Below, piece after piece: positions 4,866 through 63,720 of a stretch of 64,000 nucleotides of DNA (the first letter of the stretch is position 1; every line of letters begins with the position of its first letter). The notes under the pieces were generated by a model. That model made no database searches. It saw nothing but the letters and a program-made list of their open reading frames with translations, and had not been told where the DNA came from. The translations under genes and the position numbers were made by a program. The stretch comes from Candidatus Fervidibacter sinensis. GTDB taxonomy: Bacteria; Armatimonadota; Fervidibacteria; Fervidibacterales; Fervidibacteraceae. The stretch lies in the NCBI GenBank assembly GCA_032161045.1, contig JAVHTH010000010.1. One strand, 5' to 3'.

Positions 4866-4871
4866 AATCCT

Positions 4872-4979
4872 GTAGGGGCGGATGTAAATCCGCCCGAAAA
4901 ATTTGGGCAGGTTGCGCCAAGACTTGTAGGGGCGGATGAAATCCGCCCGAAAAATTCGGACAGGCTTTGCTTGTCCCTA
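4872..4979 (+). repeat. Family-A REPIN units (one truncated, one full) between hdrA and the flavoprotein gene
   Basis: GTAGGGGCGGATGTAAATCCGCCC... at 4872 and GTAGGGGCGGATGAAATCCGCCC...GGACAGGCTTTGCTTGTCC at 4926-4979. Confidence 0.8.
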
Positions 4980-13981: not shown

Positions 13982-15076
13982 GTGTCGGCGAATTTGAAGA
14001 GAAGGGAGGTAGTGACGATGATGGTAAGCTCATTTGTGGGAACATTAGTTGCTGAGGTTGGAACACAGCCGAAAGTAGTGAGTAAGAAAGAAGAAAGGCA
14101 AAGGGCGTTGTGGAAAGCAGTCCACATCATGGCTCCGGCCCCAGATGGCTTGTCACTGCTCATGAGGGCAATTGAAGAGCAACTTGCGCCTTTGGGCGTC
14201 AATGTGATCGTTTTTGAGGTCAATTACAAATTCGCTTTTCGTTCTGACCCTGACCTGAGGATGGAACCAGTTTTGAGTTACAAGGATGCTCGCTCGCTTG
14301 CCGAACTTTGTCGCAAACTTGGAATCCGTCTTATCCCCGAGTTCAATTGTTTGGGGCATCAATCTTGGAGCAAGACGACTTTTCCGCTGCTTGTCAAATA
14401 CCGCGAGTTTGACGAGACCCCAAACATTCCTCTTGACAATCCGGGAATTTACTGCCGAAGTTGGTGCCCGTTGCACCCGAAAGTGAACGAGGTCGTTTTC
14501 GCGTTGATGGATGAATTGCTTGAAGCATTTCAGGCTGATGCGTTCCATGTGGGCATGGATGAAGTTTTTCTGATTGCAAGTGATCAATGTCCGAGATGCA
14601 AAGGTAAGGATCCTGCGGAACTTTTCGCTAAGGCGGTCAACGATTACCACGAGCATTTGGTCAAGAAGCGAGGCGTTGAAATGTTGATGTGGGGAGACAG
14701 GTTGCTGGATGACAAAGAAATGGGATATGGCAAGTGGGAAGCGAGCCAAAATGGGACAGCACCAGCAATTGACAAAATCCCGAAGGACATCATCGTTTGC
14801 GATTGGCATTACGGGCTTCGGCAAGAATACCCGTCAATACCTTACTTTCAGCAAAAAGGCTTTCGGGTAGTTTCTGCAAGTTGGAAAGACGAGAAGGCAG
14901 CCGTTGCATTCCTCAATTACTCTCGCAAAGTCGCAACTGAGAAGTGGCTCGGTCACATGTGCACAACTTGGGTCAACGGAACAGATTTCGCTAAGGCGCT
15001 TCTTAACATGCAAGACGCTTCAGAGACAGCCAAGCAAGCAGTTAGCGCATTGCGAGCTTGTATGTCTCAATTTTGA
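13982..15076 (+). CDS. GH20-like glycoside hydrolase catalytic-domain protein
   Basis: FNCLGHQSW, FHVGMDEV (D-E catalytic pair context), MWGD and CDWHY motifs. Paralogous to the core of the 32072-34741 gene. Start uncertain. Confidence 0.6.
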   Translation: MSANLKRREVVTMMVSSFVGTLVAEVGTQPKVVSKKEERQRALWKAVHIMAPAPDGLSLLMRAIEEQLAPLGVNVIVFEVNYKFAFRSDPDLRMEPVLSYKDARSLAELCRKLGIRLIPEFNCLGHQSWSKTTFPLLVKYREFDETPNIPLDNPGIYCRSWCPLHPKVNEVVFALMDELLEAFQADAFHVGMDEVFLIASDQCPRCKGKDPAELFAKAVNDYHEHLVKKRGVEMLMWGDRLLDDKEMGYGKWEASQNGTAPAIDKIPKDIIVCDWHYGLRQEYPSIPYFQQKGFRVVSASWKDEKAAVAFLNYSRKVATEKWLGHMCTTWVNGTDFAKALLNMQDASETAKQAVSALRACMSQF

Positions 15077-15206: not shown

Positions 15207-15659
15207 TCAAAGGTCAGGTCTTTCAGGGGGAGGAATAGGTGCTGGAACGGTGAAAGAAATGCCCCCTGGAGGCTCACCAGGTTTTGGCGTTTCGTTCCCT
15301 TTTGCGTCCTTAGCCCTAACCCAAACTTTGTATGTCTCATCCTGCCCATCATTACGAGTATTCGCCCCTGCCTTTATCGTCCCTTGGTAAACATTGCCAG
15401 TCAAACTCATCGGCACTTTCTCCATTGCCCCATCAGGCTTTTGGACCTCTGCCCAAACTTCTGCTACCCCAGATGGGTCACTAACTTGAGCGGAAATTGT
15501 CACTTCTCCACCTGTAAAGCGAGTCAGTTTCGTAGGCTCAACTTGAACATTGACAATTGTTGGCGGATTAGTGTCTGGAGCACCTCCTCCGCCTCCACAA
15601 CCCCAAAGCCCCATAGTGAAACCAACGCTTAAAATTGCCAATATTCGCTTCATCCTCAA
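15207..15659 (-). CDS. Small secreted lipoprotein with an Ig-like domain
   Basis: Signal peptide ending LWGCGGGGG (lipobox-like Cys). 55 nt downstream of the giant protease gene on the same strand. Confidence 0.6.
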   Translation of the reverse strand: MRMKRILAILSVGFTMGLWGCGGGGGAPDTNPPTIVNVQVEPTKLTRFTGGEVTISAQVSDPSGVAEVWAEVQKPDGAMEKVPMSLTGNVYQGTIKAGANTRNDGQDETYKVWVRAKDAKGNETPKPGEPPGGISFTVPAPIPPPERPDL

Positions 15660-15714: not shown

Positions 15715-17784
15715 CTACCTCAGCCTTGCAATCGTCGTTCCTTGAATTTTCCTTCCTTCATCATCTTGTGCAATTACTCGGACTAAGTATGCACTCGTTG
15801 GCAACACCTCTCCATTGTTCCCCAGACCTTGCCACACAATTTGTTGTTGACCTGCCAAGCGATTCCTACCGCTCTCTAACACCGCTACCTTCCTTCCAGT
15901 CAAGGTCAAAACCTCAACTTGAGTTTGTGCTGGTTTAGTCAATGCAAACTGGATTGATATGCCCCTTCCCCGCATCGGTATCGCCTTCAATCCAACAATG
16001 CGCAAAGGTCGCTCATTGCCCAACTCAGCGATAACCTTGAACCGCCTCTCCGTCTCACCTTCATTCGGCACAAACCGATATTCTGTCTGAGTCCTCATGT
16101 ATCGCCTCGTCCCTGTCGCAAGGTCAACCAAAATCAAACTCACATCCTTTGGAACATGTCCAACTCCATTCCATATCATCGTAACTTCTTTTTGCCTCGT
16201 CCCTCGTCCCCCCTCCCTCGTCCCGAACTTCACAACCACATCCCAAACATGCTGCCTTGCTGCGTTGTTCCTAACATCAACTGCCAAAGGTGCACCATTG
16301 TTGAGCACCAAAACTTGCACATTGCTGCTTCCTTCAGGCGGTTCAGGTGGCAAACCGATTGTAAGTCCTCTTGAACCTTGTGAAACTCCCCAAATTGCCT
16401 CTCCACTCTCGTCACCAACTTTCGCCACCAACTTCACTGTCCATCCATTGCCTTTCACTACTCGTCCCGCGTCCCTCGTCCCCCGTCCCTTGCTTTGGCT
16501 TGGTGGTGGCAGTATAAGTTCGCAGTCGGTATGAGCATAGACCCAATAGCCCTTCCAAGGTTCAAGTTGCCCTTTAACTCCAGGAATGACGCTTGTATCG
16601 TAGACCAGAACATACTTTCCCTTAAACGGGTCATTTTCATCCTGCTCCCATCCCCAAGCGTAATCTTCAATCCAGCCTGCCTGCTGGGCTTGTGCCACAC
16701 TTAACGACTGTTCGCCCTTCCTCACACGAATTCCTTGGCTAATGTCCCAATTAATTGGTTGGGTGAAGGGATTGCTAATAAAATTCCATCCCTTTTGCAA
16801 GGGGATAATGACTTCTTCAGCAAGAGGTTCGCCTACAAGGCTGAAAGGAATCTCTTTGTCCGCCTTAAACCAGTAGCCCTTTCCTGGCTCAATAGCAGCT
16901 CCAACATCTCGGTAACCTTGAATTGAGGGATCCCAAACTTTCATTAGTAGACCATCTAAACCGAGTTCTTGTCGCGTTAAGGATTCCGTTCTTAGGCTTA
17001 AGCCAAATGTTCCGATGCCTTGAGCAAGGCAAGGGACAAACGGTGAGACAGTGAAACTACGCTCTTCACTGCCTTCACTCCATTGTTTCCCATCGTGGGC
17101 ATAAACTTGCCACTTATACTCACCAGCAGATAAGGCGTAGTTCCCTGAAATCCTGAAGTTCGCTATTTCTCCGCTACTGTAACTGAGTTTACTCCAACCA
17201 CTAGTGTCCTTAGTTTGATCAAATTCGTGTATGATTTGTCCATTTCGCTTGATGACTAATTTGTATTTAATAGGATCGCCATCATTGTCAGTTGCTACCA
17301 TTCGGAAAGTTGGAGTGCCGGAGGTCATTGAATCAGGGGCAGGGGAAACTAGTTGTGGAAGCAACGGCGCTTGGTTAACGGTTATCATTCTTGCATTACT
17401 TGCTTCGCTCCATTCTTTCCCGTCAAAGGCGTAAGCAAGCCACAAGTAAGTCCCCGCTGTTAACCTCTGATTTGATGGAACAACAAATGTCGCTTCTTCT
17501 CCACTTGCATACTCACTCTTATCCCAACCTGTCCCCTCTTGTGTTTGGTCAAATACAGCAACAATTTGGTCGCCTTGCTTGACCACTATCTTGAACTTCA
17601 AGTTGTCACTATCAGGATCTGTTGACTTGATTTTGAATGAAAGGGTAGGAGTGACAAAGGAATTGTTTTCTGGAGCAACAAGTTCAGGGGCATTTGGAAC
17701 TTGGTTGACAACGAAACTCCTTTCACTACTGAATTCACTCTCTTGCCCCCTTTCATCTACCGCCTTCGCTCGCCATGTGTCCAT
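15715..17784 (-). CDS. C-terminal portion of the giant S8 protease (separated by a frameshift)
   Basis: Continues the NQxPNxPEL...GxYxWxxxAxD repeat domain that begins in the upstream ORF. C-terminal FlgD-Ig/T9SS-sorting-like beta domain. Carries two GGGACGN modules. Confidence 0.7.
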   Translation of the reverse strand: MDTWRAKAVDERGQESEFSSERSFVVNQVPNAPELVAPENNSFVTPTLSFKIKSTDPDSDNLKFKIVVKQGDQIVAVFDQTQEGTGWDKSEYASGEEATFVVPSNQRLTAGTYLWLAYAFDGKEWSEASNARMITVNQAPLLPQLVSPAPDSMTSGTPTFRMVATDNDGDPIKYKLVIKRNGQIIHEFDQTKDTSGWSKLSYSSGEIANFRISGNYALSAGEYKWQVYAHDGKQWSEGSEERSFTVSPFVPCLAQGIGTFGLSLRTESLTRQELGLDGLLMKVWDPSIQGYRDVGAAIEPGKGYWFKADKEIPFSLVGEPLAEEVIIPLQKGWNFISNPFTQPINWDISQGIRVRKGEQSLSVAQAQQAGWIEDYAWGWEQDENDPFKGKYVLVYDTSVIPGVKGQLEPWKGYWVYAHTDCELILPPPSQSKGRGTRDAGRVVKGNGWTVKLVAKVGDESGEAIWGVSQGSRGLTIGLPPEPPEGSSNVQVLVLNNGAPLAVDVRNNAARQHVWDVVVKFGTREGGRGTRQKEVTMIWNGVGHVPKDVSLILVDLATGTRRYMRTQTEYRFVPNEGETERRFKVIAELGNERPLRIVGLKAIPMRGRGISIQFALTKPAQTQVEVLTLTGRKVAVLESGRNRLAGQQQIVWQGLGNNGEVLPTSAYLVRVIAQDDEGRKIQGTTIARLR
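16197..16225 (-). repeat. (GGGACGN)4 module in frame in the protease gene (sense strand)
   Basis: Reverse complement reads GGGACGA GGGAGGG GGGACGA GGGACGA. Translated GTREGGRGTR. Confidence 0.85.
16461..16489 (-). repeat. (GGGACGN)4 module in frame in the protease gene (sense strand)
   Basis: Reverse complement reads GGGACGG GGGACGA GGGACGC GGGACGA. Translated GRGTRDAGR. Confidence 0.9.
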
Positions 17785-36160: not shown

Positions 36161-36404
36161 AAAATAGGTGCGGAGTGCGGTGTGCGGAGTGCTGGGTTCT
36201 TCAGCAATTCGGCAAATGGGCAGGTCGGGTTAAAATGCACGCTTGCACTCCTGCAAGATTGCACGAAAAACGCGCAATGAATTTTTTCGGCTCACCAGAG
36301 GTTCGCCCTCCATGTGACTTCTACAAAGCCCAAATTTTCAATCTCGCACTTGAACATCCCCAAAAAATCTCCCGAAGCGCCAAACTTATTTGCGGTGTAA
36401 CGGG

Positions 36405-39400
36405 ATGAGGGAAACAATTCACGCTGTGGTAACTTTGGCTTTGACAGTTGCTGTTTTGATTTTCGCCAACTTCTGTGCGCGAGGTGAGGAAGAAATGGCT
36501 GCGTGGACGGCAAAGTGGATTTGGATTGGCGGAACACGGGATAAGGGACACGGGACGAGTGAGGATGGGTTGCCGAGAAATTTCTACCTTTGTGCCCGCA
36601 AGGTTTTTGATGTGCCAAAGGATTTGCAAGAGGCAATTTTGCGGATAACTGCCGATGCCCGTTATGTGCTTTTCGTCAATGGACAGCGCATTGGCAACGG
36701 TCCAATTCGTGGTTGGCAACATTCGTGGTTTTATGACACCTACGACTTGAAACCCCACTTGCGCCCCGGTGAGCGAAACGCTATCGGCGTTTTGGTTATC
36801 CAACCCGGCGAAACCAACTTCCAATACCCACTCGGTCGTGGTGGGTTGCTGGCGCAGTTGGATATGACCACGAAGCGAGGTCGCAAAATCACCGTCGCCA
36901 CCGACCGAACTTGGAAAGTCACTCCCCATCCCGCTTACGACCGACGGACACCACGAATTTCGTGTCAACAAGGGTTTGTGGAGCATTATGACGGGACGCG
37001 GGACGAGGGACGCGGGACGGAGGATTGGACAATGGCTGAGTTTGACGATAGCAAGTGGCAGAGGGCAGTTGAATTAGGTAAAGTCGGCATCGCACCTTGG
37101 AAAAAGTTAGTGCCACGCAACATACCGTTCTTGACAATGGAGCCAGTTTACCCTGTGCGAATTGTGCGAGTGCGAACGGTTGAGCCCCCAACCATCGTTC
37201 ACAGCATTGACCTTCGTCCCAACCTAAGCCCCGGTGACCGATTGTCCAACCCGCACGGCTTGACAGGCTTGGTGTTGACAGTTGTCCGTGCACCGAAACC
37301 GATGGAGGTTCGCGTGCGCGCTATAGGAGGCATCGGATTTGGTGCCCGCAGGGCAAAGGTCAACGGCGAAGACGCAACTTTTGATGAGCACGGCGCAATT
37401 CTGAAGTTGCGCAAGGGTGACAACTTGGTCGTCTTTGATGTGACGCGGGATTGGTATCACGATTGGTGGTTCACGACGGTTTGGGACGCGGGACGGGGGA
37501 CGAGGGACGGGTTAAAATTTGTCAATCCACTGGGGGAAGGTGAAACGGCGTGGGTGACGGCTGGTCCGTTTACTTCGCGCGATGACGAACTCTTCCAAGC
37601 AGTCTGGAACGCAAAATCTGTCACCGAAATTCGTGCCTTGCAGGCTAAATTCCGCACTCCGCACCCCATACTTCGCACAATCGCACTTGAGCATACTGCT
37701 TCCGACCATGTTTTTGCGAAAGTCGTGCTGGCGAAAGGGACGAAGGACGCGGGACGAGGGACGCGAGTTGAGAACTTGGAAGCGATTTGTCAGCCCAACG
37801 ATGAAGTTGCGGTCATTTATCCGCCACGAAAAGGCGATGTTGAGTTGCTTATTGACTTTGGGCGAGAACTCGTTGGATTTTGGGAATTTGAGGTTGATGC
37901 GCCTGCGGGGACAGTGCTTGATTTTTACGGCTTTGAAGCCATCCATCCAACCGATGACGGCGGTTTTGAAATCCAGCACACTTGGGGCTTGAACAATGTG
38001 ATGCGATACATCGCAAAGGAAGGTTGGCAGCGATACACAAGCATCGTTAGGCGTGGCTTCCGATACCTTGTGCTCACAATTCGGTTTGTAGGGGCGGGTG
38101 ATAACCCACCCGAAACTTACGGGCGGACTTCGTCCGCCCCTACAGGGCTATTTCAAAGGACAGGTGATGACCCGCCCGCAAAAACGGGCGAATTGGCATT
38201 CGCCCCTACGAAGTTGCGTCCCGTCCGCATCAAAACTTTGCGTTGCCTGTTGAACACTTACCCTTACACTGAGCGGGGCGAATTCATGTGCGACGATTGG
38301 AAACTCAACGAGATTTGGCGAATGTGCCGATACACGCTTCGGCTTTGCAGCGAGGACACTTTCGTTGACTGCCCAGCATACGAGCAAACTTTTTGGGTCG
38401 GCGATGCGCGAAACGAGGCACTCATCGCTTACGCGACTTATGGCGGTTACGAACTTGCAAGAAGGTGCTGGCTTTTGGCTGGTCAGTCTCTTTGGCGCTC
38501 GCCGCTTGTTGAAAGTCAAGTCCCAAGCGGTTGGCAAGACATCTTGACTGCATGGGCTTTGCTTTGGGTTTGGGCATGCGAGGAGTATTACCGCTATACA
38601 GGTGACGAGGGATTTTTGCGTGAGGTTTACCCGTTTGTTGCTCAGCAAATGCGCAACATCGCAGAAAAATTCATCCGACCCGACGGCTTATTTGAGATTG
38701 AAGCGTGGAATATGCTGGACTGGGCGCCAATGGACACGCCGCGAAAAGGCGTCGTCACACACCAAAATGCGATTCTCGTTGAAGCCTACAGGCGTGCTGC
38801 GACGATGGCACTTTGGTTGGGCAAGGGTGATGACGCAAAAGAGTTTGAGGCGTTGGCGCAAAAGGTTGAAGATGCAATCAATGAACACCTGTGGGATGAA
38901 CAACGGCAGGCTTTTATTGACGCCATCCACGCTGACGGTCGCCGAAGCCAAGTTTTCAGCGTCCAGACACAAACGATGGTTTACCTTTGCGATGCGGTGA
39001 CTGACGAACGCCGACCAATCATTCGCCAATACCTTTACGACAAGCCAGAAGGGTTCGTTTGGTTTGGAAGTCCGTTTGCGCTTTTCTTCCTGCTTGAAGC
39101 CTACGCAAAAGACGGCGAGTTTCAGCGCATCTTGGACATCATTCGGCGCGAGTGGGGTGCAATGATTGACTACGGCGCGACGACAGCGTGGGAAACTTTG
39201 ACGCCACGAACGAGAAGCCACTGCCACGCGTGGAGCGCAGCACCTGCTTACTTCTTGAGCACTTATGTGCTTGGCGTGAGACCAAAGGGCGTAACACGGG
39301 ACAAGGTGCAAGGGACACGGGTGATGGAATACTTCATTGCGCCAAAGCCTTGCGATTTGAAGTGGGCAAAAGGAAGATTCCCAACACCAAGCGGGACGCG

Positions 39401-39674
39401 GGACGAGGGGCATGGGACGAGAAGAGAAAAAGATTTTGCCGAGCCAAGAGAAATTGAGGTTCGTTGGGAGCGAGATGAGCGAAGGTTTACCCTTTGGTTT
39501 GCGTTGCCTAACGCTGTCAAGGCGGAAATTGTCTTACCACCTATCGTGCCTGAGGGCGCAATCGTTGATGTCAAACTTATCAAGGGCGAAGCGACTAAGC
39601 CGAAGTTTGAAGTTAACCATTGGCGCATCAGTGTGAGTGAAGGAACTCAGGGGAAAGTTGAGGCAAGTTGGTGA
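36405..39674 (+). CDS. GH78-like alpha-L-rhamnosidase family six-hairpin glycosidase carrying multiple in-frame repeat insertions
   Basis: AKWIWIGG N-terminal motif, FVDCPAYEQTFWVGDA and TTAWETL...HCHAWSAAP motifs. ATG at 36405 gives a signal peptide. Confidence 0.7.
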   Translation: MRETIHAVVTLALTVAVLIFANFCARGEEEMAAWTAKWIWIGGTRDKGHGTSEDGLPRNFYLCARKVFDVPKDLQEAILRITADARYVLFVNGQRIGNGPIRGWQHSWFYDTYDLKPHLRPGERNAIGVLVIQPGETNFQYPLGRGGLLAQLDMTTKRGRKITVATDRTWKVTPHPAYDRRTPRISCQQGFVEHYDGTRDEGRGTEDWTMAEFDDSKWQRAVELGKVGIAPWKKLVPRNIPFLTMEPVYPVRIVRVRTVEPPTIVHSIDLRPNLSPGDRLSNPHGLTGLVLTVVRAPKPMEVRVRAIGGIGFGARRAKVNGEDATFDEHGAILKLRKGDNLVVFDVTRDWYHDWWFTTVWDAGRGTRDGLKFVNPLGEGETAWVTAGPFTSRDDELFQAVWNAKSVTEIRALQAKFRTPHPILRTIALEHTASDHVFAKVVLAKGTKDAGRGTRVENLEAICQPNDEVAVIYPPRKGDVELLIDFGRELVGFWEFEVDAPAGTVLDFYGFEAIHPTDDGGFEIQHTWGLNNVMRYIAKEGWQRYTSIVRRGFRYLVLTIRFVGAGDNPPETYGRTSSAPTGLFQRTGDDPPAKTGELAFAPTKLRPVRIKTLRCLLNTYPYTERGEFMCDDWKLNEIWRMCRYTLRLCSEDTFVDCPAYEQTFWVGDARNEALIAYATYGGYELARRCWLLAGQSLWRSPLVESQVPSGWQDILTAWALLWVWACEEYYRYTGDEGFLREVYPFVAQQMRNIAEKFIRPDGLFEIEAWNMLDWAPMDTPRKGVVTHQNAILVEAYRRAATMALWLGKGDDAKEFEALAQKVEDAINEHLWDEQRQAFIDAIHADGRRSQVFSVQTQTMVYLCDAVTDERRPIIRQYLYDKPEGFVWFGSPFALFFLLEAYAKDGEFQRILDIIRREWGAMIDYGATTAWETLTPRTRSHCHAWSAAPAYFLSTYVLGVRPKGVTRDKVQGTRVMEYFIAPKPCDLKWAKGRFPTPSGTRDEGHGTRREKDFAEPREIEVRWERDERRFTLWFALPNAVKAEIVLPPIVPEGAIVDVKLIKGEATKPKFEVNHWRISVSEGTQGKVEASW
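36534..36558 (+). repeat. Decayed GGGACGN-heptad module (in register)
   Basis: GGAACAC GGGATAA GGGACAC GGGACGA. Translated GTRDKGHGTS. Confidence 0.6.
36993..37020 (+). repeat. Perfect (GGGACGN)4 module
   Basis: GGGACGC GGGACGA GGGACGC GGGACGG. Translated GTRDEGRGT. Confidence 0.9.
37483..37511 (+). repeat. Perfect (GGGACGN)4 module
   Basis: GGGACGC GGGACGG GGGACGA GGGACGG. Translated DAGRGTRDG. Confidence 0.9.
37737..37765 (+). repeat. (GGGACGN)4 module with one G-to-A change
   Basis: GGGACGA AGGACGC GGGACGA GGGACGC. Translated GTKDAGRGTR. Confidence 0.85.
38088..38209 (+). repeat. GTAG-headed REPIN-like element(s) lying in frame inside the GH78-like CDS
   Basis: GTAGGGGCGGGTG...GGGCGGAC-TTC-GTCCGCCCCTAC (38088-38143), then ...CGCCCG-caaaaa-CGGGCG and GGGCGAAT-TGGC-ATTCGCCCCTAC (to 38209). 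Translated FVGAGDNPPETYGRTSSAPTGLFQRTGDDPPAKTGELAFAPT. Confidence 0.8.
39298..39325 (+). repeat. Decayed GGGACGN-heptad module (in register)
   Basis: GGGACAA GGTGCAA GGGACAC GGGTGAT. Translated TRDKVQGTRV. Confidence 0.55.
39393..39419 (+). repeat. (GGGACGN)4 module with one altered unit
   Basis: GGGACGC GGGACGA GGGGCAT GGGACGA. Translated GTRDEGHGTR. Confidence 0.85.
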
Positions 39675-39724: not shown

Positions 39725-39910
39725 GTAGGGTCGGGCTGCTGTCTGACCGAAAAAATTGGCTGAATGTAGGGCGCGGTTTTACACCGCGCCGAAAAATTTG
39801 TCGGCAGGGTATAAAACCCTGCCCTACAAGGGAAATTTGGCTCAATGTAGGGCGCGGTTTCACACCGCGCCGAAAAAATTTTGTCGGCAGGGTATAAAAT
39901 CCTGCCCTAC
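39725..39910 (+). repeat. Array of variant REPIN units (family A2), 81-nt period
   Basis: Full units at 39766-39827 and 39847-39910: GTAG+GGCGCGGT-loop-ACCGCGCC, linker GAAAAATTTGTC, GGCAGGGT-ATAAA-ACCCTGCC+CTAC. Partial unit at 39725-39765. Confidence 0.8.
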
Positions 39911-39967
39911 AGGTGACGGTTAAGGCGGAGGTTCCTGCAAGCGATTTTGACCCTACTGCGCTAACCT

Positions 39968-48802: not shown

Positions 48803-51277
48803 ATGGGTTCCTTAAGCCTTCAAAGCATCAGTAAAAGTTTCGGCGGGATTCAAGCGCTCAAGGGCGTTGATTTGGAACTGAGAAGCGGAGAAATCCATGC
48901 TTTGGTTGGAGAGAATGGGGCGGGCAAGTCCACGCTGATTAAAATTGCAGGTGGTGTATTCCCGCCTGATGAAGGCTCTATCCTAATTGACGGCAAGCAA
49001 GTCCGCTTCTCCGACCCAAGAGATGCTCAACTTCACGGCATTGTCGTCATACACCAAACCCCAAACCTTTGTCAACACCTTTCCGTCGCCGAAAACATTT
49101 TGCTCGGGCACTTGCCAACTCAATGCGGCATCGTTCAATGGAAGAAAGCGTTTCAAATGGCTTCCGAGTTAGTGGCGCAGTTAGGTGTTTCATTGCCGCT
49201 AAACGAACCTGTCAGAAATTTGTCCGCATCGCAGCAACAACTTGTCGCACTCGCTCGTGCCCTGTCCCTTCAAGCGAAATGGCTCATTTTGGATGAGCCT
49301 ACCGCTTCTTTATCTCACTCCGAGGTTGAGAGGCTCTTCTCACTCCTTCGCCAACTTAAGGTTCAAGGTGTTGGGATTCTTTTCGTCAGCCACCGCTTGG
49401 AAGAGGTTTTGGAAATTAGTGACCGCATCACGGTTTTGAGAGATGGCGAGAAAGTTGCAACAATTCCAACTGACAATGCGACCCGTGAGAGGCTCATTGA
49501 GTTGATGGTCGGAAAAACACCTGCGCCAGTCGCACAAGAGAAGGGCTCTTTGGAAAGAATCGGGTTGGGAGAGGTCGTCCCGCTCCTTCAACTGCAAAAT
49601 GTGTCTGTTGACGGTTTCGTAAAAGGAGTGAACTTGACAATTCACAAGGGCGAGGTTGTCGGTTTGTTTGGCTTGGTCGGTGCAGGCAGGAGTGAATTGG
49701 CACAAGCGATCGTCGGGTTAAGGAGAATTGATGGCGGGCGAGTGTTTTGGAAGGGAAAGCAAGTTCGTTTTCGCACGCTGAAAGAAGCGTTGCGTGCAGG
49801 CATCGCTTACTTGCCCGAAGACCGACTACAGCAAAGTTTGCTCCAATCAAGAAGCATACGCGAAAACATTGGGTTGCCGAATCTGGCTCAATTCAGTCGT
49901 TGCGGTGTCATTGACGAACAGGTTGAAAGGGAAGCGGCGCAAAAGCAAGCAGAAAACTTGAGGGTCAAAATGGCGACTGTGGAGCAACCGGCGCGCGAAC
50001 TTTCTGGCGGCAACCAACAGAAAGTGGCGCTGGCAAAGTGGCTATTGACAAATCCTGAGTTGTTGATTTTGGATGAACCAACTCACGGGATTGATGTCGC
50101 GACGAAAGCCGAAATTCACAGGCTAATCCTTGAGTGGAAACAAAGGGGCAAAACCATTTTGCTCATTTCAAGCGAACTTGAAGAGTTGCAGCGACTTTGT
50201 GACCGAATTGTCGTGATGAGGCAGGGCGAAATTGTCGGTGAGTTTAAACCCAGTGCACCACAGGCTCAAATCTTGGAAGCAGCGTTCAAGCAATTTGACC
50301 GAAGGACCGGAAGGTTAACTGAGAGACAGCCAAAACGGTGGGCAAGTTTAGGGCGAATTTTTTCGCGCGAATTCAGTTTGCTTTTGTTCATTGGGTTGGT
50401 CGCAATTTCGGTCGGTTTGAAGAACCCTGCTTTCATCACCGCCGAACACTGGCTCACTCTCGTTCAAGAAAGCGCTCCGATGCTTATCGGGGCAGTCGCA
50501 ATTGCTATGGTCATTCTGTCCGGAAACTTGGATTTGTCCGTCGGCTCGGTTCTCGGCGCGTGCGCTATGGCTGCAGGTCACGCTGCAAAGGCGGAAGTTC
50601 CCTTGCCATTCGTTGTTTTGATCGCTTTGGGCTTGGGCGCAGCAATAGGAATTGTCAATGGTTCGCTCGTCACGAAACTTTCAATTCCGTCCATCATTGT
50701 CACTTTGGGGATGATGGGCATAGTTCGTGGGACGATGATTGTTTTGACGAAAGGTTACTGGGTCATCGGATTGCCCGAAAGTTTCCGCTGGATTGGGACG
50801 GGCAAAATTCTTGGTGTCCCGGTCCCAATTTGGATTGCGATGGTAACTTTGATGCTGGGTTGGTTCCTGCTTAGTCGGACGAGATGGGGGCGAGACCTTT
50901 ACGCAATAGGGAACAATCCAGAAGCAGCAAGGCTCGCCGGCATCCCTGTGAGGAGGCGAATTTTCAGCGTCTTCTTAGTTTGCGGGACACTTATCGGTTT
51001 GGCGTCGCTTGTCTACGCAGCCCGCTTCCCAGTAGTTCAATCCGAAACGGGTAAAGGCTTTGAATTGGATGTCATCACCGCAGCGGTTTTCGGGGGCGTG
51101 AACATTTTCGGCGGCTCAGGTTCAGTCATCGGCGCTGCTCTGGGAGCATTTGCAGTCACAGTTCTCCACTCAGCGCTAACATTCATGCAACTGGCGGGAG
51201 AATGGGACAAGTTTGCACTTGGCGGATTAATCTTGCTGAGCATCGTCATAGATTCAATCCGGCAGAGGCGACAGTAG
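48803..51277 (+). CDS. Fused sugar-type (CUT2-like) ABC transporter: tandem ATPase domains plus a permease domain
   Basis: Two Walker A / signature / Walker B sets (GENGAGKST...LILDEP; GLVGAGRSE...LSGGNQQK...LILDEP), followed without a stop by about 320 aa of multi-helix permease sequence. Confidence 0.8.
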   Translation: MGSLSLQSISKSFGGIQALKGVDLELRSGEIHALVGENGAGKSTLIKIAGGVFPPDEGSILIDGKQVRFSDPRDAQLHGIVVIHQTPNLCQHLSVAENILLGHLPTQCGIVQWKKAFQMASELVAQLGVSLPLNEPVRNLSASQQQLVALARALSLQAKWLILDEPTASLSHSEVERLFSLLRQLKVQGVGILFVSHRLEEVLEISDRITVLRDGEKVATIPTDNATRERLIELMVGKTPAPVAQEKGSLERIGLGEVVPLLQLQNVSVDGFVKGVNLTIHKGEVVGLFGLVGAGRSELAQAIVGLRRIDGGRVFWKGKQVRFRTLKEALRAGIAYLPEDRLQQSLLQSRSIRENIGLPNLAQFSRCGVIDEQVEREAAQKQAENLRVKMATVEQPARELSGGNQQKVALAKWLLTNPELLILDEPTHGIDVATKAEIHRLILEWKQRGKTILLISSELEELQRLCDRIVVMRQGEIVGEFKPSAPQAQILEAAFKQFDRRTGRLTERQPKRWASLGRIFSREFSLLLFIGLVAISVGLKNPAFITAEHWLTLVQESAPMLIGAVAIAMVILSGNLDLSVGSVLGACAMAAGHAAKAEVPLPFVVLIALGLGAAIGIVNGSLVTKLSIPSIIVTLGMMGIVRGTMIVLTKGYWVIGLPESFRWIGTGKILGVPVPIWIAMVTLMLGWFLLSRTRWGRDLYAIGNNPEAARLAGIPVRRRIFSVFLVCGTLIGLASLVYAARFPVVQSETGKGFELDVITAAVFGGVNIFGGSGSVIGAALGAFAVTVLHSALTFMQLAGEWDKFALGGLILLSIVIDSIRQRRQ

Positions 51278-61029: not shown

Positions 61030-61035
61030 TTGAAG

Positions 61036-61926
61036 ATGGCGGTACAAAGTTTGAGGGCAATTAGGCGCAAAATTCGGGCTGTGCGAAACTTGCAAAAAAT
61101 CATGACGGCGATGAAGATGGTGGCGGCGGCAAGATTGCGCCGCGTTCAAGACAGAGTGGTCGCCGGCAAACCTTATACCGAAAAGATGCGCTGGCTCGTT
61201 GAAACCCTTGCACCACATTTGCCCGCTATTGAACACCCGCTTTTGCAAGTTCGTCCCGTCCAAAAGCGAGGTTTGGTCGTAATCACAGGGGACAAAGGTT
61301 TGTGTGGGGCTTACAACAACAACATCATTCGCGCCGCTCAAAATTTCATGAGCCAAGATAGTGCGGCACCGTTTTTGCTTTACTGCATTGGACGAAAAGG
61401 TTACGACTTCTTCTCCCGTCGCGGCTATCAAGTCGCTCGCCATCGCCCTCAATTACCGGTCACCGCTTCCTTTGCACAGTTTAAAGCCGTCGCTGAAGAT
61501 ATTGTTCAATGGTTCACGAGCGGCGAGGTTGACGAAATTTTTGTCGCTTACGGAGAATTTGTGAACGCTTTAGTGCAGCGTCCCAAGATTATCCCGCTTC
61601 TGCCAATCAAAACGGACGGGACAGGGCATGAAGGACGGGGGACGAGAGAGACAGAGAGGGAATACATCTTTGAGCCGAAAGCGCCTGAACTGTTGGCGTT
61701 GTTGCTGCCGCGATATGTTGAGCATCTGGTTTACCACATTTTGCTTGAAAGCCTTGCCAGTGAGAACGCCGCCCGGATGAACGCGATGAGTCAAGCAGCC
61801 GATAACGCCGAGGAACTAATCAAGCAACTAACTTTGCAAGCCAACAAAATCCGTCAGTGGAACATCACGAAAGAGTTGCTTGAAATCACGACGGCTGTGG
61901 AAGCGATGAGACGGGCAAGAGATTGA
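61036..61926 (+). CDS. atpG: F1 ATP synthase subunit gamma
   Basis: MAVQSLRAIRRKIRAVRNLQKIMTAMKMVAAA N-terminus and NITKELLEI C-terminus. Confidence 0.95.
   Translation: MAVQSLRAIRRKIRAVRNLQKIMTAMKMVAAARLRRVQDRVVAGKPYTEKMRWLVETLAPHLPAIEHPLLQVRPVQKRGLVVITGDKGLCGAYNNNIIRAAQNFMSQDSAAPFLLYCIGRKGYDFFSRRGYQVARHRPQLPVTASFAQFKAVAEDIVQWFTSGEVDEIFVAYGEFVNALVQRPKIIPLLPIKTDGTGHEGRGTRETEREYIFEPKAPELLALLLPRYVEHLVYHILLESLASENAARMNAMSQAADNAEELIKQLTLQANKIRQWNITKELLEITTAVEAMRRARD
61618..61646 (+). repeat. Partly decayed GGGACGN-heptad module in frame in atpG
   Basis: GGGACAG GGCATGA AGGACGG GGGACGA. Translated GTGHEGRGTR, in the loop between LLPI and YIFEP. Confidence 0.65.
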
Positions 61927-63451: not shown

Positions 63452-63720
63452 GTTCGTAGTGAGGCACGGAACGAAGTGGAGTGCCGTTATACAGTTTAGA
63501 AGTTACGCAGTTGGATGTAGGGGCGGCTGCTAAGCCGCCCGTAGGGACGGTTTTAAAACCTTACAAAGGATGTTTTCGGGCAGACTATCGTCTGCCCCTA
63601 CAAAAATGACACCAACTGCGTAAGTCCTAACAGTTGATACGCCACTTCGCTAACGCTTCGTGGCTTACTACGAACAAAAGGAAGTTTGTAGTAAGGCACG
63701 AAACGAAGTGAAGTGCCGTT
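63452..63720 (+). repeat. Composite nested REP structure
   Basis: Outer imperfect inverted repeat 63452-63675 (GTTCGTAGT...ACTACGAAC, TTACGCAGTTGG/CCAACTGCGTAA). It encloses a family-A REPIN (63517-63601) that itself contains GTAGGGACGGTTTTAAAACCTTAC. The 33-nt GTAG-headed left arm (63456-63488) is repeated directly at 63688-63720 with 3 transitions. Confidence 0.75.

Follow-up and report, generated by a model that had tools for sequence, protein, structure and literature searches.

The 64,000-nucleotide stretch of Fervidibacter DNA analysed here (the window) contains nine to ten copies of a 27-nt module of four G-tract heptads, (GGGACGN)3GGGACG, against zero expected, and six of these copies lie in one gene, which encodes a GH78-like alpha-L-rhamnosidase. 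The modules form a lineage-specific, dispersed family of G-tract heptad arrays that arises at the DNA level inside genes and survives where the encoded Gly/Thr/Arg/Asp/Glu peptide falls in a surface loop. The best overall explanation, which we hold with moderate confidence, is a gene-colonising array family whose G tracts are held at the nucleotide level and serve as a putative G-tract signal in cis.

Module copies, anatomy and orientation

With up to three mismatches allowed, (GGGACGN)3GGGACG has seven matches in the window and none in 100 dinucleotide shuffles. A scoring scan tolerant of CpG decay, which also returned nothing from shuffles, adds copies 1 and 5 of the GH78-like gene, one copy in an ATP synthase gamma gene and a weak candidate in an 824-aa ORF. 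The family is therefore real in the window and well above chance.

The GH78-like gene (36405..39674, plus strand; Pfam Bac_rhamnosid6H, 2.4e-53, also the _N and _C families) has six of the ten copies, as originally predicted, and makes up 5% of the window; only the two decayed copies had been misplaced, copy 1 by 3 nt (36534 for 36531) and copy 5 by 7 nt (39298 for 39291). Its reading frame is open from a TTG at 36390, and the orthologue P0001 (98% identical) is annotated from 36495; the likely start, the ATG at 36405, yields a protein with a signal peptide. Also present in the gene, in frame, is a REP-like hairpin element (38086-38225). All six modules are on the plus strand. Copy 1 (36531..36557) is decayed, reading GGAACAC GGGATAA GGGACAC GGGACG, and is translated in phase 0 as GTRDKGHGT. 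Copies 2 (36993..37019; phase 0, GTRDEGRGT) and 3 (37483..37509; phase 1, DAGRGTRDG) are perfect. Copy 4 (37737..37763; phase 0, GTKDAGRGT) has one mismatch, its second unit being AGGACG, which leaves three intact G3 tracts. Copy 5 (39291..39317) is decayed to GTAACAC GGGACAA GGTGCAA GGGACA, while copy 6 (39393..39419; phase 0, GTRDEGHGT) has a single altered unit, GGGGCAT, with two mismatches.

The other hosts are dissimilar. A gene for a 689-aa protein (15715..17784, minus strand) bears two modules on its sense strand, one perfect (16463..16489, minus; phase 2, GRGTRDAGR) and one with a single mismatch (16198..16224, minus; phase 0, GTREGGRGT); the perfect one falls in a C-terminal domain common to many Fervidibacter paralogues, which have a module at the same place. 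The ATP synthase gamma gene (61030..61926, plus) has one decayed module with four mismatches (61618..61644, plus; GTGHEGRGT) in a variable loop that differs in length and sequence among orthologues. The weak candidate (50708..50734, plus; score 18/24, a value not reached in shuffles) lies on the sense strand of the 824-aa ORF (48803..51277, plus).

The consensus for the modules reads (GGG-R-C-R-N)x4, flanked 5' by a partial GRAC unit and 3' by a purine-rich, C-poor tail, and none of the six frames contains a stop codon. As for known structured RNA families, Rfam covariance models gave no match at the gathering threshold anywhere in the window. Because three heptads make 21 nt, the three sense phases are windows on one cyclic heptapeptide, and the translations in phases 0, 1 and 2 agree with the prediction that every copy encodes a permutation of one repeat. 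Differences in codon phase consequently lose their force as an argument against selection on the peptide, as all three sense frames yield the same sequence.

Copy number is sharply fixed near four heptads, as had been proposed: in 194 kb of Fervidibacter DNA, arrays of one, two, three, four and five units number 577, 22, 2, 34 and 1, respectively, and no array of four or more units occurs in any shuffle. Unit number is constant across seven orthologues and in a pair of strains with 98.6% identity. No orthologue has a disrupted reading frame, and CDS length is equal in the two closest strains, contrary to what a phase-variable contingency locus would show.

These data bear directly on the idea of an ordinary heptanucleotide microsatellite, in which slippage builds (GGGACGN)n, the coding frame freezes it at four units and conservation reflects youth. 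Gain or loss of one or two units in a CDS shifts the frame, so only three-unit steps survive; fixed length alone, which the original prediction had set against slippage, thus fails as an argument, since frame constraint gives the same outcome. Heptamer simple repeats are over-represented in prokaryotes (PMC4692102), and, among the matches listed from a scan of 185,579 GTDB species, many unrelated phyla have homogeneous (GGGACGA)n and (GGGACGG)n arrays with 4-28 units. The copies, however, are old, orthologous ones being common to lineages about 52% diverged at 4-fold sites, and their linkers are heterogeneous within arrays, where slippage would homogenise them. The near absence of three-, five- and seven-unit arrays, the four units of an intergenic copy and the 33-nt length of the two cleanest insertions, no multiple of 7 or 21, also argue against a microsatellite, which we regard as unlikely.

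Each of the ten copies in the window occupies a long ORF in sense orientation, as had been noted, but this rule does not extend beyond it. Related genomes show a sense bias of about 4:1; antisense copies make up about 20% and encode an unrelated peptide, VPRPSSPVP, and a single intergenic copy was found in about 190 kb of Fervidibacter DNA. On contig L120, adjacent convergent genes each bear modules in their own sense orientation, and orientation therefore tracks the gene rather than replication.

Origin and spread of the modules

How the copies arrived is indicated by alignments of 9-31 orthologues at the protein and codon levels. At the position of every copy in the GH78-like gene, the loop of outgroup orthologues is shorter or different, and the copies are either lineage-specific in-frame insertions of 24-33 nt or length-neutral overwrites of a surface loop. 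The expectation that each segment would be an insertion thus holds against outgroups at some sites, while several others are replacements without change of length. Copy 1 is a nine-codon insertion relative to outgroup P0018. Copy 5, which is perfect in the P0003 orthologue, is an eight-codon insertion relative to P0013, P0016 and P0018, and copy 6 is an insertion missing from P0016, P0018 and all distant GH78 proteins. Copy 2 overwrites an ancestral loop with no change of length, and P0013 appears intermediate.

In an AlphaFold model, all six modules of the GH78-like protein lie in coil or low-pLDDT loops. Copies 1 (residues 14-25, coil) and 6 (residues 968-984) have pLDDT below 50; copy 2 forms coil with a short turn (residues 167-176), copy 3 a loop joining two strands (residues 332-340, pLDDT about 68), copy 4 coil (residues 416-424) and copy 5 a beta-hairpin loop (residues 936-941).

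Sister lineages have new copies at other sites (L120:4915 and L122:11334, 33 nt each). Private 33-nt insertions are seen in P0003 and P0016. A whole-array variant with GGGACA in all four units occurs at L120:4915 and L087:1294. Modules are present in all crown-clade Fervidibacter contigs and in four GTDB Fervidibacter genomes, which contribute eight of the matches listed (at least 119) from the GTDB scan; linkers are mixed in these Fervidibacter matches, and every copy has four units apart from a single one with five. In the P0018 genome the family is missing from 23 kb, and in the low-GC P0008 genome (P0008 / L121 lineage) it is decayed. The outgroup gaps, together with the new copies in sister lineages, bear out the view of a dispersed element family that colonises coding sequence.

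Modules are also found in a Mu-like phage contig, L133, in sense orientation within genes for the portal, the terminase, an HTH protein and a 217-aa protein; the phage presumably infects Fervidibacter.

A discrete mobile or enzyme-written element, in which a dedicated activity inserts a pre-made piece of about 27-33 nt, would account for the fixed size, the occurrence in phage and the pattern of six fixed bases with a free linker. Such an activity could be a reverse transcriptase or polymerase recopying a 6-nt template with one untemplated base per round, or an integrase. The common partial 5' unit and purine-rich 3' tail are compatible with it, as are the two 33-nt insertions that arose independently, each with GAAAGG after it, and the whole-array GGGACA variants, although lineage-wide CpG decay explains the latter equally well. 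Flanks otherwise show only the partial unit and the tail, with GAAAGG after the two fresh insertions as a possible further feature. Against an enzyme-written element, several sites are replacements without change of length and no associated gene was identified. By eye, the sequences are direct heptads with no reverse-complement arm or inverted repeat and no clear target-site duplication, the marks of a MITE-type element. We consider this origin improbable, a little more so than a microsatellite. The making of new copies by repeat-templated repair or slippage is favoured over a dedicated mobile-element enzyme; once made in this way, arrays would be frozen at four units by frame constraint.

Nucleotide-level conservation and possible role

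Divergence at 4-fold sites between the window and the P0003, P0004, P0007 and P0010 lineages is 0.51-0.55. Between lineages, synonymous sites are about 52% diverged. In the modules the figure is about 67% for linker N positions and 15% for core positions, and the GGG tracts are 90-95% intact. Glycine codons in the tracts are GGG in 44 of 46 cases (13-29% usage elsewhere), and tract bases at 4-fold sites are G at 55 of 61 (27% background). With modules called from a single lineage, G remains at 11 of 13 sites versus 37% (Fisher p = 0.0017) and other pairs are similar; these counts are small, at 6-13 sites per pair, and come from one gene family in lineages that are not independent. Conservation of the loop base C5 equals that of the G tracts (96%; GAC in 30 of 33 versus a background of about 55%). 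CpG decays to CpA, with 47 G-to-A changes against 3 C-to-T, and residues drift (R to H/Q; E to K/M/T/A/G; T to A). Orthologues were searched for the same peptide in non-G-rich synonymous codons; instead GGG and related codons are kept while amino acids change, in line with the proposal that the nucleotide motif and not the peptide is conserved. Comparison of these sequences indicates that, after arrival, peptide and linker drift and that the three Gs and the C of each unit are held at the nucleotide level, synonymous sites included.

Selection for a hydrophilic (GTRDxGR)n loop (for solubility, thermostability or recognition), with the DNA repeat as a by-product, is largely refuted by this pattern, the opposite of its expectation, and we regard it as very improbable. 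It would suit the shared cyclic heptapeptide, the preference for phase 0 and sense orientation, and the excess of G-to-A changes, which would be expected if Met, Cys, Trp or stop codons are avoided. The synonymous positions of the G tracts are, however, conserved far beyond the expectation from codon usage, residues change freely, antisense copies encode another peptide, an intergenic copy exists and the modules occupy low-confidence loops without fixed structure.

Conservation is not strict. Between two close strains the modules change at four times the rate of the remaining gene sequence, and copy 4 differs from strain P0001 at five positions within 6 nt (37743-37748). Half of the GH78 copies have lost a G tract and strains change fast; maintenance is therefore leaky, or recurrent conversion rather than function is at work. 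The latter corresponds to selfish or neutral molecular drive, whereby a biased DNA process makes and homogenises arrays with no benefit to the cell and coding loops merely tolerate them; candidate processes are short-patch ectopic gene conversion, repeat-templated break repair and an uptake or repair bias like that of DNA uptake sequences. The clustered changes in near-identical strains point in this direction, as do the length-neutral overwrites at sites 2-4 with an intermediate state in P0013, conservation of the whole GGGRC core and not of the Gs alone, the lineage-wide switch of P0010 to GGGRCA units, the presence of both orientations, the modules in phage genes and the heavy decay of one lineage (P0008 / L121). 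Tracts of 27 nt are nevertheless very short substrates for homologous conversion, and linkers vary both inside a copy and from copy to copy, with no sign of a shared haplotype. The length and the position of arrays are also stable over saturated synonymous divergence, and the sense bias and clustering in few genes require an extra filter. Molecular drive is thus a possible but not a probable explanation.

Under the preferred reading of a gene-colonising family with nucleotide-held G tracts, the kept feature would be an evenly spaced set of four G3 tracts, carried by the mRNA and the non-template strand. All five canonical quadruplex motifs of the window are modules: the G3+N1-7 rule is obeyed at 36993, 37483, 39393, 16201 and 16466 and broken at 36531, 37737, 39291 and 61618. 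The original assignment of the modules to this class therefore suits three of the six GH78 copies, the other three having a broken tract. Fervidibacter is a genus of hot-spring, hyperthermophilic Armatimonadota. In the ViennaRNA G4 model, intact copies are folded at 37 C and unfolded at 65 and 80 C. The analogous DNA (GGGAATC)3GGG has a melting temperature of 50.4 C in 100 mM KCl (PMC4692102), and the growth range of the organism is 65-87.5 C (PMC11535203). Folding into a G-quadruplex is plausible from the sequence, with predicted melting below growth temperature, and stability at 65-87.5 C appears doubtful from the model and the analogue. A pure G-quadruplex model is also questioned by the conservation of C5, which such a structure does not require. 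A G-tract signal, whether a quadruplex or a protein-bound G-tract array, that acts in cis on the host transcript or DNA is the likeliest role; it could, for example, slow or gate expression below the optimum temperature.

A bolder version, which we put forward only tentatively, is that a host-specific system writes or maintains four-tract G arrays in the coding sequences of Fervidibacter and its phage, as a new class of cis element with synonymous Gs under purifying selection. If so, the arrays would overlap the protein code and be read as RNA or non-template DNA through a temperature-gated quadruplex or an oligomeric-protein binding array, and gene-specific dosage, with six or seven modules per GH78 gene, would tune expression.

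Comparison with known repeat systems

Rickettsia palindromic elements (RPEs), reportedly described by Ogata et al. in 2000, are said to be in-frame repeats of unrelated protein genes, tolerated in surface-exposed segments. RPEs are palindromic elements of 100-150 bp with hairpin potential. The Fervidibacter modules resemble them in being in frame, surface-tolerated and present or absent by lineage among orthologues, but are 27-nt direct heptads without an inverted repeat and with conserved synonymous sites. Uptake sequences (USS/DUS) are reportedly, after Findlay and Redfield in 2009, genomic words maintained by molecular drive. They are single 9-12-bp words tied to competence. They share with the modules many coding copies, a location in poorly conserved protein segments, tolerable frames and upkeep at the nucleotide level, and the modules can likewise arise in place through point changes; the Fervidibacter unit, however, is a four-fold tandem array. 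The TAACTGA direct repeats of Beggiatoaceae and cyanobacteria (PMC4679880) are similar in heptamer direct repetition but are reported to be intergenic, with many sets per genome, a unit that is not G-rich and a proposed action at the RNA level.

Among known systems, the nearest are dispersed G4-forming heptamers, GGGAATC in Xanthomonas and GGGGA(C/T)T, the classical STRR1 unit, in Nostoc (Rehm et al. 2015, PMC4692102). These form G-quadruplexes in vitro, prefer four units, range from 2 to 26 units with differences between close relatives, occur at about 180 sites per genome in Xanthomonas, and lie between genes in 89-93% of cases, with a deficit on the coding strand of ORFs (PMC4692102). The Fervidibacter modules share with them a 7-nt tandem unit with a G3+ tract, heterogeneous units, dispersal through the genome, restriction to a lineage and a preference for four units. 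Unlike the Xanthomonas and Nostoc heptamers, the Fervidibacter arrays are nearly all intragenic, in frame, about 80% sense and fixed at four units, keep their length over saturated synonymous divergence and are shared with a phage.

Module copies and their host genes

The 27-nt module (GGGACGN)3GGGACG is matched seven times in the window with three or fewer mismatches and never in 100 dinucleotide-preserving shuffles, and a scoring scan that gives CpG-decay products half credit recovers ten sites, with none in shuffles. Six sites lie on the plus strand in the ORF 36390..39674 (36531, 36993, 37483, 37737, 39291 and 39393), two on the minus strand in the ORF 15715..17784 (16198 and 16463) and one on the plus strand in the ORF 61030..61926 (61618); a weak site at 50708 comes from the scoring scan. 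TRF reports period-7 arrays of about four copies at the same places as the pattern matches. By Pfam, the three main host genes encode a GH78 alpha-L-rhamnosidase, a protein with a FlgD_ig-like C-terminus and ATP synthase gamma. The original prediction of six copies in one glycosidase gene, with recurrence in three unrelated genes of the window, is thus borne out. Copies are clustered, six of the ten falling within 5% of the window, and the GH78 gene has been hit anew in other lineages. The codon phase is 0 in most copies, 1 at 37483 and 2 at 16463; because three heptamers span 21 nt, the cyclic heptapeptide GTRDxGR is encoded in all three phases.

Arrays of one, two, three, four and five units number 577, 22, 2, 34 and 1 in 194 kb, a count that includes orthologous sites repeatedly, and shuffles contain none with four or more units. 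The copy number of about four heptads, claimed from the window, is confirmed by this sharp peak at four units. The arrays are flanked upstream by a partial GRAC unit and downstream by about 12 nt that are rich in purines and poor in C, often reading GGTGA or AGTGA.

In ATP synthase gamma, the module loop is variable across all lineages, and insertion and drift look alike there. The best homologues of the 689-aa protein encoded at 15715..17784 are modular paralogues that are just 53-58% identical. Its C-terminal 260 residues form a conserved domain (...ELILPPPSQSKGRGTRGEGRVAKGNGW...VRFGTRDGGRGT...) joined to many Fervidibacter proteins of WD40, esterase, CARDB and other architectures. Since this domain carries both modules, in the same places, in many proteins, some copies have spread by domain shuffling.

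Insertion, retention and decay in GH78 genes

The GH78 protein was aligned with 31 homologues, and the DNA of nine orthologues from independent assemblies was threaded onto the alignment. The expectation that each copy is a lineage-specific loop insertion holds for the sites at 36531, 39291 and 39393, where 8-9 or more codons have been inserted that the orthologue P0016, the outgroup P0018 and all distant GH78s lack, but not for those at 36993, 37483 and 37737, where an older loop was replaced with little or no change in length. Another orthologue, P0013, has an intermediate-looking state at the 36993 site. In an AlphaFold model built for the 98%-identical P0001 protein (pTM 0.83), all six modules lie in coil between secondary-structure elements, with lowered confidence and with two in segments of pLDDT <50.

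Orthologue P0003 has a private 33-nt insertion (L120:4915) in which all four units are GGGACA, and P0016 carries another of this length elsewhere (L122:11334). GAAAGG comes after copy 16463 and after each of these two insertions; it is not general among the copies and makes no clear target-site duplication. The GH20 gene beside GH78 in L120 is a divergent paralogue of the window GH20 and was discarded as a source of clean insertions. The lower-GC genome of orthologue P0008 has modules in decayed form only, and no module was found in 23 kb of the P0018 genome.

The same CDS also bears, at 38086-38225 (plus strand), some 120-140 nt inserted in frame that only the window strain and P0001 have. 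This insertion encodes ...ETYGRTSSAPTGLFQRTGDDPPAKTGELAFAPT... and has a pLDDT of 25-32 in the P0001 model. Two perfect hairpins, GGGCGGA-CTTCG-TCCGCCC and GGGCGAAT-TGGC-ATTCGCCC, lie within it, and over 58 nt it is 84% identical to the intergenic REP-like repeat at 292-348, in opposite orientation. This REP-like family, found between genes at 283-545, 2756-2870, 4869-4950, 6780, 39752-39911, 44712 and 63521-63600, consists of paired hairpins (GTAGGGGCGGATGAAATCCGCCC + GGGCAGGCTTCGCCTGCCCCTAC) in tandem units of 64-81 nt; no Rfam family matched anywhere in the window. The 38086-38225 segment is an RPE-like palindromic element inserted in frame.

Fourfold degenerate sites are close to saturation: 51-55% of them differ when the window is compared with the lineages of P0003, P0004, P0007 and P0010. 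Between the window and P0003, 12 of 18 linker positions differ, against 22 of 144 core positions. When P0003 alone sets the module columns and four other orthologues are read against them, the match at each position of the unit G1-G2-G3-A4-C5-G6-N is 0.95, 0.90 and 0.94 for the three tract guanines, 0.96 for C5, 0.78 for A4 (changes to G) and 0.51 for G6 (changes to A). Tract bases at the third position of fourfold codons are G in 55 of 61 cases, compared with 27% G at background fourfold sites. Under one-lineage ascertainment, 11/13, 10/11 and 6/6 synonymous G remain, versus a background of 37-39% (Fisher p = 0.001-0.004). Meanwhile, module residues drift (R to H or Q; E to K, M, T, A or G; T to A). 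A peptide kept in non-G-rich synonymous codons, named beforehand as the pattern that would speak against the prediction, is not what the orthologues have: glycine codons at tract positions are GGG in 44 of 46 cases, against 13-29% of other glycine codons in the same genes. Because synonymous tract bases stay while residues change, in counts that are small and drawn from one gene family and related lineages, the object that is kept lies at the nucleotide level, and the reading as a peptide repeat is rejected.

Decay of CpG at the ACG step is asymmetric, with 47 G-to-A and 3 C-to-T changes in the GH78 modules of the window, L120, L124, L125 and L127; this asymmetry can be explained if Met, Cys, Trp and stop codons are avoided. 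The P0010 lineage has GGGRCA in nearly all units. The window and P0001 differ at 44 positions in 3180 nt, 11 of them in or beside modules, a four-fold excess consisting mostly of A/G differences, and the 37737 site has five changes inside 6 nt. Modules are thus quick to change in the short term, yet last in the long term. The arrays may serve as a signal, read as G-tracts or as a quadruplex; the chief alternative is that a biased DNA process homogenises them and that they have no function. If selection maintains them, they would be a clear natural bacterial case of a nucleic-acid signal laid over the protein code; if molecular drive does so, they would indicate a sequence-specific mutational process, so far unknown, by which protein loops are reshaped.

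Orientation and distribution

The G-rich strand is the sense strand at all ten window sites, but the sense-only orientation claimed from them does not extend further: independent sites number roughly 29 sense, 7-9 antisense and one intergenic (L122:5712). In L120, the modules of the convergent neighbours GH78 (plus) and GH20-like (minus) are, one antisense exception aside, sense with respect to the gene that holds them, so orientation tracks the gene. A replication-strand explanation is excluded, since orientation flips with the gene within 3 kb. In loci L011, L087, L111 and L112, long ORFs are open on the C-rich strand only and encode the peptide VPRPSSPVP, which marks antisense copies; the genes L122:13784-16312 and L124:407-2254 contain more. 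The former gene also holds, at 14907-14933 and 15329-15355 (minus strand), antisense GGGGACT-like heptamer arrays that adjoin an antisense GGGACG module and whose unit is as in the Nostoc repeat GGGGA(C/T)T (STRR1).

The window ATP synthase gamma is 100% identical to a 'Candidatus Fervidibacteria bacterium JGI MDM2 JNZ-1-D12' protein. A search for the exact pattern in one genome of each GTDB species gave at least 119 loci. Among the matches listed, eight loci in four genomes are from Fervidibacter and four from other Armatimonadota, all with mixed linkers (A, C or G) and exactly four units, save the L087 copy with five; those from other phyla are mostly homogeneous microsatellites of 4-28 units. 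Mixed-linker (GGGACGN)4 also occurs in a number of soil lineages of high GC: above all Gemmatimonadales (L019, L029, L030, L037, L045, L050, L053, L090, L107, L119), which account for roughly one in four of the matches listed, as well as Acidobacteriota (L018, L070) and the loci L025, L069 and L073. Two-unit strings of the motif occur in none of the papers searched, and repeats go unmentioned in the genome paper of F. sacchari. Identical sites in independent NCBI, JGI, ENA and Logan assemblies rule out an assembly artefact.

A scan of IMG/VR found the module in 31 contigs, with about a dozen related Mu-like phage contigs (GC ~0.54) carrying 2-5 modules each: L133 (IMGVR_UViG_3300040931_000034), L128, L132, L135, L144, L146-L149, L153, L155 and L156. 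The L133 modules, all sense, lie in genes for a Mu-like portal (two copies), a large terminase, an HTH protein and a 217-aa protein, with major head protein, prohead protease, endolysin and DNA methyltransferase genes as neighbours. The common module and GC content suggest that Fervidibacter is the host of L133-type phage. As phage genes also carry modules, whatever makes or keeps the module would act on DNA replicating in this presumed shared host.

The modules are a genuine finding; ordinary microsatellite noise, a peptide repeat and an artefact are all rejected as explanations. The copies are lineage-specific, fixed-length, in-frame, mostly sense G-tract arrays in loop-coding DNA, with tracts retained at the nucleotide level and shared with phage; the proposed dispersed family that colonises coding sequence is thereby supported. 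A hyperthermophile keeps such arrays in frame across many genes and phage, with conserved synonymous sites. The modules can serve as markers for contigs and phages of the Fervidibacter lineage in metagenomes, and the 9-11-residue loops, being lineage-specific add-ons, can probably be trimmed in engineered Fervidibacter glycoside hydrolases.

Possible quadruplex folding and comparable repeat families

Both strands of the 64-kb window contain five canonical G3+N1-7 motifs, all of them intact modules, and composition-matched shuffles average 1.9. The quadruplex sequence rule attributed to the module is thus obeyed by intact copies but not by three of the six GH78 copies, which have lost a tract. 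In the ViennaRNA G4 model, intact copies are folded at 37 C (-9 to -12 kcal/mol) and unfolded at 65 and 80 C. Fervidibacter sacchari belongs to the Armatimonadota, is aerobic, degrades polysaccharides and has a growth range of 65-87.5 C (PMC11535203); the arrays occur in this species, which is now available in culture for testing. The comparable DNA (GGGAATC)3GGG has a T1/2 of 50.4 C, Nostoc sequences exceed 74 C, and those from Nostoc species with tracts of four guanines exceed 95 C, all in 100 mM KCl (PMC4692102). Given the modelled unfolding and the T1/2 of the 50.4 C analogue, quadruplex folding at growth temperature is doubtful unless aided by RNA, high K+, proteins or G4-tract variants (a G linker, or G in place of A4); it becomes more plausible at temperatures below the optimum. 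A pure quadruplex model gives no account of the strong conservation of C5.

Among known repeats, the nearest kind is found in Xanthomonas and Nostoc: dispersed G-rich heptamers that resemble the Fervidibacter modules in their 7-nt unit, tracts of three or four guanines and four-unit preference. These repeats occupy about 180 sites per Xanthomonas genome and form quadruplexes in vitro, with no function known for them; 89-93% are intergenic, the coding strand of ORFs is depleted of them, and they run from 2 to 26 units (PMC4692102). Unlike them, the Fervidibacter family has neither an intergenic preference nor a spread of unit number. In colonising genes in frame, the modules are like Rickettsia palindromic elements, and as a word maintained inside tolerant coding segments they are like DNA uptake sequences.
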